From assembly GCF_988243305.1 (NCBI RefSeq), contig NZ_OZ547136.1: a DNA stretch of 64,000 bases, one strand, 5' to 3'. The translations under genes and the position numbers were made by a program. This document shows, piece after piece, positions 4,165-57,130 of this stretch (its first letter is position 1; the number at the start of each line of letters is the position of its first letter). A model generated the notes under the pieces. That model saw only the letters and a program-made list of their open reading frames with translations. It had not been told where the DNA came from and did no database searches.

Positions 4165-5025
4165 GTGAGCGAAATGGTTGATACAACTCAAACTACCACC
4201 GAGAAAAAACTCACTCAAAGTGATATTCGTGGCGTCTTCCTGCGTTCTAACCTCTTCCAGGGTTCATGGAACTTCGAACGTATGCAGGCACTGGGTTTCT
4301 GCTTCTCTATGGTACCGGCAATTCGTCGACTCTACCCTGAGAACAACGAAGCTCGTAAACAAGCTATTCGCCGTCACCTGGAGTTCTTTAACACCCAGCC
4401 GTTCGTGGCTGCGCCGATTCTCGGCGTAACCCTGGCGCTGGAAGAACAGCGTGCTAATGGCGCAGAGATCGATGACGGTGCTATCAACGGTATCAAAGTC
4501 GGTTTGATGGGGCCGCTGGCTGGTGTAGGCGACCCGATCTTCTGGGGAACCGTACGTCCGGTATTTGCAGCGCTGGGTGCCGGTATCGCAATGAGCGGCA
4601 GCCTGTTAGGTCCGCTGCTGTTCTTCATCTTGTTTAACCTGGTGCGTCTGGCAACCCGTTACTACGGCGTAGCGTATGGTTACTCCAAAGGTATCGATAT
4701 CGTTAAAGATATGGGTGGTGGCTTCCTGCAAAAACTGACGGAAGGGGCGTCTATCCTCGGCCTGTTTGTCATGGGGGCATTAGTTAACAAGTGGACGCAT
4801 GTCAACATCCCGCTGGTTGTCTCTCGCATTACTGACCAGACGGGCAAAGAACACGTTACCACTGTCCAGACTATTCTGGACCAGTTAATGCCAGGCCTGG
4901 TACCACTGCTGCTGACCTTTGCTTGTATGTGGCTACTGCGCAAAAAAGTTAACCCGCTGTGGATCATCGTTGGCTTCTTCGTCATCGGTATCGCTGGTTA
5001 CGCTTGCGGCCTGCTGGGACTGTAA
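4165..5025 (+). CDS. manZ: PTS mannose-specific EIID component
   Basis: 286-aa ORF immediately after manY; operon order manXYZ. Confidence 0.97.
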   Translation: MSEMVDTTQTTTEKKLTQSDIRGVFLRSNLFQGSWNFERMQALGFCFSMVPAIRRLYPENNEARKQAIRRHLEFFNTQPFVAAPILGVTLALEEQRANGAEIDDGAINGIKVGLMGPLAGVGDPIFWGTVRPVFAALGAGIAMSGSLLGPLLFFILFNLVRLATRYYGVAYGYSKGIDIVKDMGGGFLQKLTEGASILGLFVMGALVNKWTHVNIPLVVSRITDQTGKEHVTTVQTILDQLMPGLVPLLLTFACMWLLRKKVNPLWIIVGFFVIGIAGYACGLLGL

Positions 5026-5079: not shown

Positions 5080-5538
5080 ATGACAATCACGGACCTGGTA
5101 CTGATTCTTTTCATCGCCGCACTCCTGGCCTTCGCGATCTACGATCAGTTCATCATGCCCCGCCGTAACGGCCCCACCCTGCTGGCAATTCCTTTGCTCC
5201 GGCGTGGTCGCATCGATAGCGTTATCTTCGTCGGATTGATTGTCATTCTTATCTATAACAACGTCACGAATCATGGCGCGCTAATAACAACATGGTTATT
5301 AAGTGCACTGGCTCTGATGGGTTTTTATATATTCTGGATCCGCGTTCCGAAGATCATCTTTAAACAAAAAGGTTTTTTCTTCGCCAATGTCTGGATTGAA
5401 TATAGCCGAATCAAAGCGATGAACTTGTCGGAAGATGGCGTGTTGGTGATGCAATTAGAACAGCGTCGGCTGTTAATCCGCGTTCGAAATATCGACGATC
5501 TGGAAAAAATTTATAAGCTTCTCGTTTCAAATCAATAA
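5080..5538 (+). CDS. yobD: UPF0266 inner membrane protein
   Basis: 152-aa hydrophobic ORF; position after manZ matches K-12. Confidence 0.9.
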
Positions 5539-5744
5539 GTTATCAATTTAGCCAAAGCTATGTTTAGTGTATTTTTAATAATCAGACATAGCTTAGGCTA
5601 TATTACCCCTTCCCTTATTTGTTATTTATTTTAACGTTTTATTGATATATAAATCTAAATGAAAATCGTTATCAATAAAGCAATGAAATAATATATTCCA
5701 ACAGTTGTTTTATATTCTCAAAATATGTTAAGGTTGCGCCCTCA

Positions 5745-5960
5745 TTTGGGGAGTAGCCGATTTCCAGATTCCGGAAATGTACGTGTCAACATACTCGTTG
5801 CAAAACGTGGCACGTACGGACTGAACACTTTCAGTCAGGCGAGACCATATGCACATCAATCGCTATGCCTGCATGAACGCGAAAACCATCGCGGTTTGTC
5901 GTTCATGTATGCATGTTTGCTGGGGGCGATGATGTGTTTTATGGATACCCCGGTCAGGAC
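5745..5960 (+). promoter_or_regulatory. mntP 5' leader with yybP-ykoY-type manganese riboswitch
   Basis: Long untranslated leader before mntP containing GGGGAGUAG (5747-5755) and CAGGCGAGACC-like conserved riboswitch elements; the 81-aa ORF in the track here is most likely not coding. Confidence 0.6.
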
Positions 5961-5966
5961 GTTGTC

Positions 5967-6533
5967 ATGAATATCACTGCTACTGTTCTTCTTGCGTTTG
6001 GTATGTCGATGGATGCATTTGCTGCATCAATCGGTAAAGGTGCCACCCTCCATAAACCGAAATTTTCTGAAGCGTTGCGAACCGGCCTTATTTTTGGTGC
6101 TGTCGAAACCCTGACGCCGCTGATCGGCTGGGGAATGGGCATGTTAGCCAGCCGGTTTGTCCTTGAATGGAACCACTGGATTGCGTTTGTGCTGCTGATA
6201 TTCCTCGGCGGGCGAATGATTATTGAGGGTTTTCGTGGCGCAGATGATGAAGATGAAGAGCCGCGCCGTCGACACGGTTTCTGGCTACTGGTAACCACCG
6301 CGATTGCCACCAGCCTGGATGCCATGGCTGTGGGTGTTGGTCTTGCTTTCCTGCAGGTCAACATTATCGCGACCGCATTGGCCATTGGTTGTGCAACCTT
6401 GATTATGTCGACATTAGGGATGATGGTTGGTCGCTTTATCGGCTCAATTATTGGGAAAAAAGCGGAAATTCTCGGCGGGCTGGTGCTGATCGGCATCGGC
6501 GTCCAGATCCTCTGGACGCACTTCCACGGTTAA
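5967..6533 (+). CDS. mntP: Manganese efflux pump MntP
   Basis: True start taken at internal ATG ([18 protein letters not shown]...), giving 188 aa; the track ORF extends upstream into the leader. Confidence 0.93.
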
Positions 6534-7339
6534 TAAGAACGCTGCCAGAGGTGAATATTAAAGTCCGTCTGGCAGTCGAACACTTCTTTTGCTGCCAGTG
6601 TTTGCCAGACTTCTGACTTCGCACGCCAGGCAAACGGCGTCATCTGCAATAATGCGACGGCTTCGTCACTGCGAAGACGCATCGGATAACACAACTCAGC
6701 ACTCTGCTGTAATGTAAAACCTTCCAGTTGTTCTGCATGAGGTGCATGAAGATGTACTTCATTGTAAATCAGCCCCTTCAGCTCCATCAAATGTCGCGGT
6801 CCCGGCGTGGCAGTAATGACCCAACCGCCAGGCTTCACTACTCGCGCTAATTCTTCTGCTTTACACGGCGCGTAAATACGTATTATGGCGTCCATACTGG
6901 TATCGGAAAACGGCAAACGGTGGCTGGAAGCAACACAAAAAGTGACCTGCGGATAGCGTTTCGCCGCCGCTTTTATCGCTACCTTCGAGACATCCAGGCC
7001 AAACGTGGTGATTTCGGGCAGCGCATCGGCAAATGCGTGTGTGTAATACCCTTCACCACAGCCAATATCCAGCACCGCTGTGGCCTTTTCATCAAGCCGT
7101 TCCCGCAGTTGGGCGACAATTGCATCACGCAGCGGCTGATAATGTCCGGCATCTAAGAATGCGCGGCGTGCTTGCATCATTTCCGCGCTGTCGCCCGGAT
7201 CACGAGACCGTTTATGCTGAACGGGCAGCAGATTGACATACCCTTCTTTCGCCATATCAAACTGATGTCGCTGGGGACAGATATAGCTGTTTTTTTCACG
7301 CGAAAGAGGCTGATGGCAAAGTGGACAGGAAAACGACAT
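6530..7339 (-). CDS. rlmA: 23S rRNA m1G745 methyltransferase
   Basis: 269-aa ORF with N-terminal Cys4 zinc-binding motif (CPLC...CPQRH) and a SAM-methyltransferase fold motif. Confidence 0.95.
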
Positions 7340-7504
7340 GACAACTCCGGCAGGATACTAAAGGCCGCAAGTGTAACGCGAATCACGCGGCGGGCAAATA
7401 TCCGAACGACTGGAGCGAAGATAAAGCAAAGTAAAAAGCCTCGCATTCGACGAGGCTTTATAGCGAGATTGAAGCGTATTCACACTTCAGATCAGTGGAT
7501 TCGA

Positions 7505-7714
7505 TCAGATAGCTGTTACGTTAACAGCTGCCGGACCTTTCTGACCGTCCTGAATTTCGAACTCAACGTTCTGACCTTCAGCCAGAGTTTTGAAACCATT
7601 ACCCTGGATAGCAGAGAAGTGTACGAACACGTCTTTGCTGCCATCAGCCGGAGTAATGAAGCCAAAACCTTTAGACTCGTTGAACCACTTAACCTGACCT
7701 TTAATCTTTGCCAT
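7505..7714 (-). CDS. cspC: Cold-shock-like protein CspC
   Basis: 69-aa ORF with canonical cold-shock domain (KGFGFI, VFVHF). Confidence 0.97.
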
Positions 7715-7726
7715 TTGAAAAATTCC

Positions 7727-7870
7727 TTAGATTGTTTTCTTCGCCCGCAGGCATAACATAGATAAAACTGACACATTACTGCATGAGGCACCAATATAAG
7801 GCTCGGCAGAGAAGCGGTATTCAACGTCAACGTGTTTACTCAGGACTTCTTTACTGAAAATGCCACACAT
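7727..7870 (-). CDS. yobF: Small protein YobF (47 aa), cotranscribed upstream of cspC
   Basis: Hand translation of the minus strand gives [47 protein letters not shown]; below the ORF-track size cutoff. Confidence 0.85.
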
Positions 7871-8539
7871 AAACAGAACTGTACCTCGTTTAACCCGAAA
7901 TCTGTTATCACATACAACGTTAATTATGGCAAGCCATTTTTAAACATGTCTCGATCAGACGCACAAATCTCGATACGTCTTCCACTTTTTTTGCACACTT
8001 ATGCAACGGAATACGCGCCGATATATCATTGTGCTTAACCTTGCCAGTTCAGGCAGATACTTAAACTGACGTATTTTCTAACATAGTTCAATAAGTTCAG
8101 TTGTTCCAGGCCAGTGGGAGAAGTTATTACATAGTGCGTGCAATATCACATTTTCTGCTATGCAATGAATAAAAAGTTATATCACTTTTTCTCATAAAAC
8201 AGTCAGTTAACGGCTATCGATCACCCCAAAGAGAAGTCAATCGCCAAAGGTATTGTAAATTTAAAATAAGAAAAATTGATGAATGCGCAAAAAAATCAAG
8301 AGAGAAACGTTTCGCTAATAAATAATACCACACTTAATCACAAATCCGATGTAAACATCCTAATAAATTAATGGGCTAAATATCTTTTTCTGATATCCCG
8401 TTACGCAAATAAATAATATGATAATTATTTGAAGTCAGACCAGAGTTTTAATTTGAAGCAGTTGCACCATGGCAGTGCGTATAATCAGGATGAATTGAGT
8501 AACCCTTCAACGACGGGGTTACTCAAGATTGAGGAAGGA

Positions 8540-23345: not shown

Positions 23346-23612
23346 AAGTCAGCGAAGGGAATGCTTCTGGCTTTTAACAGATAAAAAGAGACCGAACACG
23401 ATTCCTGTATTCGGTCCAGGGAAATGGCTCTTGGGAGAGAGCCGTGCGCTAAAAGTTGGCATTAATGCAGGCTTAGTTGCCTTGCCCTTTAAGAATAGAT
23501 GACGACGCCAGGTTTTCCAGTTTGCGTGCAAAATGGTCAATAAAAAGCGCGGTGGTCATCAGCTTAAATGTTAAAAACCGCCCGTTCTGGTGAAAGAACT
23601 GAGGCGGTTTTT
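23346..23612 (+). ncRNA. ryeA: Antisense small RNA RyeA (SraC) overlapping SdsR; boundaries approximate
   Basis: Known antisense partner of SdsR in the pphA-yebY intergenic region; plus-strand hairpin and T-run at 23574-23612. Confidence 0.5.
23384..23485 (-). ncRNA. sdsR: Small regulatory RNA SdsR (RyeB)
   Basis: Minus strand reads GCAAGGCAACUAAGCCUGCAUUAAUGCC...GUGUUCGGUCUCUUUUU, matching the recalled SdsR sequence and its terminator. Confidence 0.8.
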
Positions 23613-48841: not shown

Positions 48842-50167
48842 GGAGATCCCCTCATAATTTCCCCAAAGCGTAACCATGTGTGAATAAATTTTGAGCTAGT
48901 AGGGTTGCAGCCACGAGTAAGTCTTCCCTTGTTATTGTGTAGCCAGAATGCCGCAAAACTTCCATGCCTAAGCGAACTGTTGAGAGTACGTTTCGATTTC
49001 TGACTGTGTTAGCCTGGAAGTGCTTGTCCCAACCTTGTTTCTGAGCATGAACGCCCGCAAGCCAACATGTTAGTTGAAGCATCAGGGCGATTAGCAGCAT
49101 GATATCAAAACGCTCTGAGCTGCTCGTTCGGCTATGGCGTAGGCCTAGTCCGTAGGCAGGACTTTTCAAGTCTCGGAAGGTTTCTTCAATCTGCATTCGC
49201 TTCGAATAGATATTAACAAGTTGTTTGGGTGTTCGAATTTCAACAGGTAAGTTAGTTGCTAGAACCCATGGCTCCTTTGCCGACGCTGAGTAGATTTTAG
49301 GTGACGGGTGGTGACAATGAGTCCGTGTCGAGCGCTGATTTTTTCGGCCTTTAGAGCGAGATTTATACAATAGAATTTGGCATGAGATTGGATTGCTTTT
49401 AGTCAGCCTCTTATAGCCTAAAGTCTTTGAGTGACTAGATGACATATCATGTAAGTTGCTGATAGGTTTCCAGTTTTCCGCTCCTAGGTCTGCATATTGT
49501 ACTTTTCCTCTTACTCGACTTAACCAGTACCAACCCAGCTTCTCAACGGATTTATACCATGGCACTTTAAAGCCAGCATCACTGACAATGAGCGGTGTGG
49601 TGTTACTCGGTAGAATGCTCGCAAGGTCGGCTAGAAATTGGTCATGAGCTTTCTTTGAACATTGCTCTGAAAGCGGGAACGCTTTCTCATAAAGAGTAAC
49701 AGAACGACCGTGTAGTGCGACTGAAGCTCGCAATACCATAAGTCGTTTTTGCTCACGAATATCAGACCAGTCAACAAGTACAATGGGCATCGTATTGCCC
49801 GAACAGATAAAGCTAGCATGCCAACGGTATACAGCGAGTCGCTCTTTGTGGAGGTGACGATTACCTAACAATCGGTCGATTCGTTTGATGTTATGTTTTG
49901 TTCTCGCTTTGGTTGGCAGGTTACGGCCAAGTTCGGTAAGAGTGAGAGTTTTACAGTCAAGTAATGCGTGGCAAGCCAACGTTAAGCTGTTGAGTCGTTT
50001 TAAGTGTAATTCGGGGCAGAATTGGTAAAGAGAGTCGTGTAAAATATCGAGTTCGCACATCTTGTTGTCTGATTATTGATTTTTGGCGAAACCATTTGAT
50101 CATATGACAAGATGTGTATCTACCTTAACTTAATGATTTTTACCAAAATCATTAGGGGATTCATCAG
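48839..50167 (-). mobile_element. IS10 insertion sequence (1329 bp)
   Basis: 402-aa IS10 transposase ORF; outside end reads CTGATGAATCCCCTAATGATTTTGGTA at 50167; identical 9-bp direct repeats cgtttggtg at 48830-48838 and 50168-50176. Confidence 0.88.
48852..50060 (-). CDS. IS10 (IS4-family) transposase
   Basis: 402-aa ORF MCELDILHDSLYQFCPELHLKRLNSLTLACHALLDCKTLTL... matching the recalled Tn10/IS10 transposase. Confidence 0.95.
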   Translation of the reverse strand: MCELDILHDSLYQFCPELHLKRLNSLTLACHALLDCKTLTLTELGRNLPTKARTKHNIKRIDRLLGNRHLHKERLAVYRWHASFICSGNTMPIVLVDWSDIREQKRLMVLRASVALHGRSVTLYEKAFPLSEQCSKKAHDQFLADLASILPSNTTPLIVSDAGFKVPWYKSVEKLGWYWLSRVRGKVQYADLGAENWKPISNLHDMSSSHSKTLGYKRLTKSNPISCQILLYKSRSKGRKNQRSTRTHCHHPSPKIYSASAKEPWVLATNLPVEIRTPKQLVNIYSKRMQIEETFRDLKSPAYGLGLRHSRTSSSERFDIMLLIALMLQLTCWLAGVHAQKQGWDKHFQANTVRNRNVLSTVRLGMEVLRHSGYTITREDLLVAATLLAQNLFTHGYALGKL

Positions 50168-56545: not shown

Positions 56546-57130
56546 TTACTCACTGACAGGGTTCGTAGGCCACTCAATATCAGGTGCAGTTGATGTATCA
56601 ACACGGTTCAGCAACACCCGATACTTCTTCCAGGCTTCCAGCAACGAGTTTTCTTCCTCCGTTGCGATTTCCAGATCTGCAGCATCCTGAAGCGGCGCAA
56701 TATGCTCACTGGCTACCTGCATCAGGTTGTTTTTTGTTTCTTCCGCCTCCCGGATCCGGAACAGTTTTTCTGCTTCCGTATCCTTCACCCAGGCTGTGCC
56801 GTTCCACTTCTGAAACTCCCCTTCCGGCGATAACCAGGTAACATTTTCCGGTAACGGACCGAGTTCAGAAATAAATAACGCGTCGCCGGAAGCCACGTCA
56901 TAAACCGTTTTACCCCGATGGTCTTCAAAGAGATGCCACGATGACTCATCACTGTTGAAAACAGCCACGAAGCCAGCAGGAATATCTGGTGGTGCAATAT
57001 CGGTACTGTTTGCTGGCAGACCTGTATGAGGCGGAATATATGCGTCACCTTCACCAATAAATTCATTAGTTCCGGCCAGCAGATTATAAATTTTTATGGT
57101 CCGTGGTTGTTCACTCATTCTGAATGCCAT
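56546..57130 (-). CDS. tfa: Tail fiber assembly protein Tfa
   Basis: 194-aa ORF overlapping the stf stop by 1 nt; matches lambdoid Tfa. Confidence 0.92.

Follow-up and report, generated by a model that had tools for sequence, protein, structure and literature searches.

The leader of mntP in an Escherichia coli chromosome as the known yybP–ykoY manganese riboswitch, with two conserved alternative folds

Positions 5742–5966 of the window (the whole 64 kb stretch of DNA that was analysed) almost certainly make up the 225 nt 5′ UTR of mntP, which in E. coli is a Mn2+ riboswitch of the yybP–ykoY family. The element is the already known and well-studied E. coli mntP manganese riboswitch, and there is nothing new in its identity. 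A preliminary description made from the sequence alone had proposed a manganese riboswitch leader upstream of mntP. This proposal is borne out by a match to the family model RF00080 (E=5.6e-10), by an aptamer 1 nt removed from that of strain K-12, by a four-way junction fold and by covariation. Two yybP–ykoY-type elements had also been named in the leader, and these were located as GGGGAGTAG at 5748–5756 and CAGGCGAGACC at 5836–5846. Of the span first given, 5745–5966, the 3′ end stands, while the leader most likely starts at 5742.

The window is E. coli chromosome in which the K-12 gene order manZ, yobD, mntP, rlmA is kept. The genes are placed as follows.

4165–5025: manZ
5080–5538: yobD
5967–6533, plus strand: mntP CDS, 188 aa, manganese efflux pump (RefSeq in an identical strain and in K-12; Pfam PF02659)
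6530–7339, minus strand: rlmA

Several human E. coli isolates match region 5540–6540 with 100 % identity. Of 5426 complete E. coli genomes, 5419 carry the region at a coverage of at least 80 %. Ten positions between 5539 and 5990 set the window apart from K-12, one in the aptamer (5826), four in the expression platform (5891, 5895, 5900 and 5961) and the rest upstream. A tblastn search with MntP as the query retrieved 80 Enterobacteriaceae loci with 81–99 % protein identity over residues 1–188, and the 78 leaders with enough upstream sequence make up the alignment (A2) used for the comparisons below. The contig of one locus (L076, CACSKA010000003.1) bears the name Chryseobacterium sp., but its mntP is enterobacterial and its leader of the Pluralibacter type (as in L070 and L072); that contig probably belongs to a mislabelled or contaminated assembly.

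The aptamer occupies the 5′ half of the leader.

5742–5852, plus strand: Mn2+ aptamer (yybP–ykoY), four-way junction (RF00080, MFE fold, covariation)
5743–5749/5845–5851, plus strand: P1.1
5750–5755 and 5841–5844, plus strand: L1
5756–5758/5838–5840, plus strand: P1.2
5760–5778, plus strand: P2
5779–5788/5808–5817, plus strand: P3.1, with L3 at 5789–5795
5796–5807, plus strand: P3.2
5819–5836, plus strand: P4

Folded in isolation, 5742–5853 has as its MFE structure a four-way junction of P1.1, L1, P1.2, P2, P3.1/L3/P3.2 and P4 (−37.5 kcal/mol, z=−3.5). The junction forms two stacks, P1.1/P1.2/P2 and P3/P4, an arrangement that emerges from both the MFE fold and covariation and that matches the architecture of the family. 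Both strands of L1 are present, the 5′ strand as GGGGAGUAG at 5748–5756 and the 3′ strand as GAGA(CC) at 5841–5846, and are invariant or nearly so in the 78 orthologues. The L3 loop (CAACAUAC) lies between P3.1 and P3.2, where GUCAACAUAC at 5785–5794 aligns to the model consensus with posterior '*'; its sequence is likewise invariant or nearly so among the 78. The element sits directly 5′ of mntP, and the same arrangement recurs at the 78 orthologous loci. The pattern GGGGAGTAG-N70-95-GCGAGACC occurs once in the 64 kb window and in 0 of 100 shuffles.

Covariation supports this fold. Across the 78 leaders 98.6 % of sequence-by-pair cells in the aptamer helices are paired, against 27–46 % when the partner is slid by 1–3 columns. 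Compensatory changes are found in 16 of the 33 pairs, including all seven pairs of P4, and no shuffle reached the observed measures. The K-12 aptamer and that of the window are identical but for one base of the P4 loop (5826, C versus T). For the K-12 sequence, Mn2+ binding and raised expression have been reported (PMC12153347, PMC9603457, PMC11647493). By likeness to K-12, from which it stands one aptamer loop base apart, the leader in the window would be expected to bind Mn2+ and to raise expression in the same way.

Downstream of the aptamer, the expression platform runs to the start codon of mntP.

5853–5966, plus strand: expression platform
5851–5944, plus strand: anti-P1.1 hairpin, with pairs 5845–5849/5940–5944, 5851–5858/5930–5937 and 5860–5864/5925–5929 (covariation, RNAalifold)
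5865–5914, plus strand: lineage-variable apical hairpin of the platform, 50 nt
5948–5953, plus strand: CCCCGG element, −19 to −14 from the start codon and three bases upstream of the Shine–Dalgarno (SD) sequence (consensus fold)
5956–5959, plus strand: SD sequence AGGA, 7 nt before the AUG

The 3′ half of P1.1, CCAUA at 5845–5849, also pairs with UAUGG at 5940–5944, and this pairing extends into the platform hairpin. The resulting anti-P1.1 hairpin has 18 pairs, 10 of them with compensatory changes, and 95.5 % of its cells are paired across the 78 leaders. RNAalifold, run independently on the same alignment, returns the ligand-free consensus, i.e. the anti-P1.1 hairpin together with a helix between CCCCGG at 5948–5953 and the released 5′ strand UUGGGG at 5746–5751. 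Both alternative folds, aptamer and anti-P1.1 platform, are kept with covariation. The anti-P1.1 hairpin agrees with the published ‘P1.1 switch helix’, for which the aptamer is complete at about 110 nt of transcript and the switching point lies at about 205 nt (PMC12153347). In the UUGGGG/CCCCGG helix 100 % of cells are paired in the 78 sequences; no compensatory double changes were seen in it, only one-sided ones (U.G to U-A, in four leaders with CCCCAAC). The best-supported inference is that this conserved helix, which falls within the ribosome footprint, would limit 30S access to the RBS. A second invariant G-run, CUGGGGGC at 5920–5924, falls on the loop of the platform hairpin or on its 3′ shoulder, and could in principle pair with CCCCGG at 5948–5953 in competition with the UUGGGG of L1.

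The apical hairpin at 5865–5914 is far less conserved. It is reduced to at most 1 nt in 36 of the 78 orthologues and measures 19–52 nt in the rest, being 12 nt shorter in other Escherichia species. The same central hairpin is treated as a platform helix in E. coli (PMC12153347); judged from the aligned leaders, it is a lineage-specific insert and probably dispensable, with the anti-P1.1 hairpin and the UUGGGG/CCCCGG helix as the core of the platform. The only terminator-like match, at 5878–5893, lies inside this hairpin. An intrinsic terminator there is unsupported, since the site falls in the variable hairpin and no terminated mntP transcripts were reported from T7 in vitro synthesis (PMC12153347). 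In the MFE structure of the full leader the SD sequence is paired with the P2 5′ strand and loop (UCC 5763–5765/GGA 5957–5959 and CCGG 5771–5774/CCGG 5950–5953). This pairing was rejected as a conserved mechanism because the P2 loop differs from genus to genus and RNAalifold leaves P2 intact.

When the ensembles were constrained to the two folds, the OFF ensemble was the more stable by 6.5±2.5 kcal/mol in 77 of the 78 orthologues. In these models the default state would thus be off, consistent with a ligand being needed for ON. The cost of opening the segment from the SD sequence to +12 showed no systematic difference between ON and OFF constraints over the 78 orthologues (4.45 versus 3.80 kcal/mol); a negative value for L070 in this accessibility comparison is an artefact of colliding constraints. 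Published probing likewise shows no clear Mn-dependent change in reactivity at the RBS (PMC12153347).

In the proposed mechanism the loops L1 (GGGGAGUAG...GAGA) and L3 (ACAUAC) would dock and make the Mn2+ site in the four-way-junction aptamer of about 110 nt, and bound Mn2+ would hold P1.1 closed. Without Mn2+, the segment GAUGUGU..UAUGG at 5930–5944 would invade and capture the P1.1 3′ half CCAUA to form the long platform hairpin, and the freed UUGGGG could pair with CCCCGG just upstream of the SD sequence. Translation of mntP would then be low and Rho would terminate the untranslated transcript. Mn2+ would reverse this OFF state, and the exporter would be made under manganese excess. Taken as a whole, this explanation, a Mn2+ riboswitch in the mntP leader with P1.1 strand exchange and Rho termination, is very likely correct; the UUGGGG/CCCCGG helix as the limit on ribosome access is its last step, and one that we infer. 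In K-12 the element has been described as a translational ‘on’ switch in which the P1.1 3′ half pairs either within the aptamer (with Mn2+) or with the platform (without Mn2+) (PMC12153347). Termination by Rho, seen in vitro, takes place in the untranslated leader and over the first 147 bp of the gene unless Mn2+ restores translation (PMC11647493).

The same riboswitch could have Rho-dependent attenuation as its main output, with Mn2+ restoring transcription–translation coupling and so blocking Rho, and not direct occlusion of the RBS. Reporter output that rises 23–28-fold with bicyclomycin and 9–16-fold with Mn, together with the in vitro termination by Rho, would fit such an arrangement (PMC11647493). 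So would the absence of a clear Mn-dependent opening of the SD/AUG region from published probing (PMC12153347) and from the folding reported here. However, Mn2+ is reported in the literature to activate translational fusions, the switch is called translational there, and relief from Rho is itself proposed to need translation. Attenuation by Rho as the main output is considered rather unlikely. Rho attenuation and translational control are layers of one mechanism, not alternatives.

Among known systems, the mntP (yebN) riboswitch of E. coli K-12 is the same element at the same locus. Its apo crystal structure is PDB 4Y1M, and the E. coli mntP Mn2+ riboswitch was reportedly the subject of a study by Dambach et al. 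in 2015. K-12 and the window are alike in P1.1, L1, L3, the platform helices, the SD sequence and the start codon. Of the four platform substitutions between them (5891, 5895, 5900 and 5961), three are in the lineage-variable apical hairpin, and that at 5900 turns a G.U pair into G-C. Firmicutes riboswitches of the yybP–ykoY family that act on transcription have a platform of intrinsic terminator and antiterminator. Those of Lactococcus lactis yoaB and Bacillus subtilis yybP and ykoY share with mntP the RF00080 aptamer family and the role of ‘on’ switch for putative Mn exporters, whereas mntP uses a strand-exchange hairpin next to the RBS, and Rho rather than an intrinsic terminator. The other E. 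coli yybP–ykoY member, the alx (PRE) Mn2+/pH riboswitch, resembles mntP in its L1/L3 metal-binding logic, its translational control and its P1.1 switch helix. In contrast to the element studied here, which has P2 and a four-way junction, alx lacks P2 (three-way junction) and has a different L3 sequence, intrinsic termination sites and a response to alkaline pH (PMC12153347).

The start of the transcript, its promoter and the sequences upstream of it bear on how the reading frames in the leader are judged.

5705–5734, plus strand: predicted mntP promoter, with −35 TTGTTT (5705–5710), an 18 nt spacer and extended −10 TGtTAAGGT (5726–5734)
5545–5604, no strand assigned: two palindromic boxes TAGC-N4-GCTAT, arms 5545–5563 and 5586–5604, at −197 to −138 from the transcription start

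Transcription most likely starts at 5742. This position agrees with a UTR length of 225 nt, the value given in the literature. The published riboswitch numbering assigns A11 to L1 and A48 to the first position of L3 (Stephen et al. 2025, PMC12153347). With +1 at 5742 there is an adenine at both positions, which no other offset within a few bases provides, and the leader is therefore started at 5742 rather than 5745. The block TTGTTTTATATTCTCAAAATATGTTAAGGTTGCG, 7 nt upstream of +1, is near-invariant in the 78 orthologues. A consensus promoter scan did not call this conserved mntP promoter because its −10 is weak; two AT-rich sites, 5575–5604 and 5669–5697, were called instead.

The palindromic boxes form an inverted repeat (I2) with 19 nt arms that are 89 % complementary. 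Their pattern matches three times at 5545–5604; over the entire window 0.23 matches would be expected. Among 82 loci, 78 keep one or two copies ahead of mntP, at a distance of about 41 bp from each other. The boxes at 5545–5604 are probably the MntR operators of the mntP promoter. Weak matches to miRNA families of Rfam at 5543–5606 (E 0.2–2) were rejected, as the operator-like palindromes account for them.

Over the leader the preliminary description had noticed, in the six-frame track, an 81 aa ORF and an N-terminal extension of mntP, and had held both to be probable artefacts. Both are indeed in the mechanical ORF list, and its judgement holds for each.

5725–5970, plus strand: 81 aa ORF, artefact and not a gene (start upstream of +1, frame unconserved)
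5913–5966, plus strand: in-frame 18-codon N-terminal extension of mntP (206 aa ORF 5913–6533), artefact

Both have entered public collections, the first as an 81 aa ‘hypothetical protein’ (273 contigs) and the second as a 206 aa MntP (at least 1000 contigs), and neither is in the curated K-12 or RefSeq records; they look like artefacts of automatic gene callers. One 501 nt contig labelled Acinetobacter nosocomialis carries the E. coli 81 aa ORF and is probably a mislabelled or contaminated assembly.

A small protein encoded in the leader, either the 81 aa ORF itself or a same-frame uORF from AUG 5905 or 5941 to the UGA that overlaps the mntP AUG, with its translation coupled to mntP initiation, is very unlikely. 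There are 81 open codons, the stop and the mntP start share an ATGA, and gene callers have deposited the ‘hypothetical protein’ in a 114-member cluster, with the exact sequence on those 273 contigs. However, the ATG at 5725–5727 precedes +1 by 17 nt and shares the TG of the conserved extended −10, which is why 68 of the 78 leaders have kept it. The frame is open only in Escherichia and has 0–39 open codons in most other genera, and a Pfam search of the 81 aa ORF found no family. The ATGA overlap is explained by the conserved Asn codon (AAT or AAC) at position 2 of mntP. Although AUG 5941 is kept in nearly all orthologues, it is conserved because its UAUGG pairs with the CCAUA of P1.1, and its distance to the mntP start codon is 25–28 nt, with all three frames represented (32/22/21). 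None of the three internal AUGs, 5905, 5913 and 5941, has an SD sequence, and they lie in helices; for AUG 5905 the predicted folds leave no base free (P unpaired 0.00). The K-12 record annotates nothing in this place, although it lists other small proteins, e.g. yoaL. A search of the literature outside supplementary tables found nothing relevant on ribosome profiling or small proteins in the mntP leader.

A narrower form of this idea starts from the conserved AUG 5941. A short uORF from there to the UGA at 5968–5970 might be translated only when Mn2+-closed P1.1 frees UAUGG, with the ribosome re-initiating at mntP and shielding the transcript from Rho. If true, it would explain why a Mn-dependent opening of the SD sequence itself has been unseen; it is nevertheless given very little probability.

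That MntP truly starts at ATG 5913, as a protein of 206 aa, and that the annotated 188 aa start is wrong, is extremely improbable. The frame is open from 5913 and the longer protein has been called on the many public contigs mentioned above. Yet only leaders of Escherichia, Citrobacter and Salmonella have the ATG at −54, which has no purine-rich SD sequence before it and lies inside the variable hairpin that is missing from 36 of the 78 orthologues. The preliminary description had advised checking for an mntP start with a proper RBS at 5967, and such a start was found. The ATG at 5967–5969 is invariant in all 78 orthologues, preceded at a spacing of 7 nt by AGGA at 5956–5959; SD variants among the 78 are AGGA (53), TGGA (21) and GAGG (4), and the 7 nt spacing holds in 74 of the 78 leaders. 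Position 5967 is also the RefSeq start in the 100 % identical strain TUM14771 and the curated start in K-12. In all 80 tblastn matches the alignment opens with residue 1 of the 188 aa form. The Pfam domain PF02659 covers residues 31–182 of that form (E=1.7e-55, 187.4 bits against a cut-off of 24.4), outside the extension, and nothing is gained from the added residues.

Model searches gave a divided result that depends on the threshold. At the gathering threshold an Rfam scan of the whole window returned five matches, none of them to the manganese family. A sensitive scan of 5540–6100 placed RF00080 at 5740–5836 with 41.9 bits and E=5.6e-10, over model positions 1–177 of 177. The gathering score of RF00080 is 45 bits, an operational cut-off and no biological feature of the family. 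As a control, the experimentally studied mntP leader of K-12 MG1655 scores 41.6 bits against RF00080, likewise under 45, so that the miss at gathering level stems from the model and not from the sequence. In the RF00080 (Rfam 15) alignment, for the window (5740–5836) and for L002 (5462–5558), the match stops right after P4; the long P4 insert is deleted, and the 3′ L1/P1.1 strand GCGAGACC is never scored. The Rfam search that had been proposed as a check is thus positive in the sensitive scan and negative in the gathering scan (41.9 against 45 bits). The preliminary description had named the lack of a riboswitch model hit as grounds for dropping the idea; at the gathering threshold that is literally the outcome, and it is a false negative, since the validated K-12 leader scores 41.6 bits. 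That the motif is a decayed or chance look-alike, as the lack of a gathering-level match might suggest, is already refuted by the E value over the full model, the same score for the K-12 reference and the strong covariation support for the structure. The leader is also near-universal among complete E. coli genomes (5419 of 5426), which speaks against this reading as well.

Other RNA matches in the window concern separate loci. A match to the cspA thermoregulator RF01766 (139.7 bits, 7430–7890, minus strand) falls on a cspC/cspE-like gene and yobF, not cspA, and largely reflects similarity of cold-shock-protein coding sequence. An overlapping antisense sRNA pair lies at 23379–23523, with SraC/RyeA on the plus strand (175 bits) and SdsR/RyeB on the minus strand (114 bits). 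Matches to RNA-OUT, an IS10-type antisense RNA (99.5 bits, 50053–50122, plus strand), and to the IS009 RNA family (224 bits, 56589–56787, minus strand) point to insertion sequences or prophage-related DNA in more distant parts of the window.

The element is a textbook riboswitch whose crystal structure is known and whose function has been studied in detail, and it is of little new biological consequence. For annotation it holds two lessons. A pipeline that equates ‘no hit’ at the gathering level with ‘no riboswitch’ fails at E. coli mntP, and protein collections carry two artefacts from this leader, the 81 aa ‘hypothetical protein’ and the 206 aa MntP. The family-wide picture of the platform that the comparative data provide could help in designing experiments on RBS gating.
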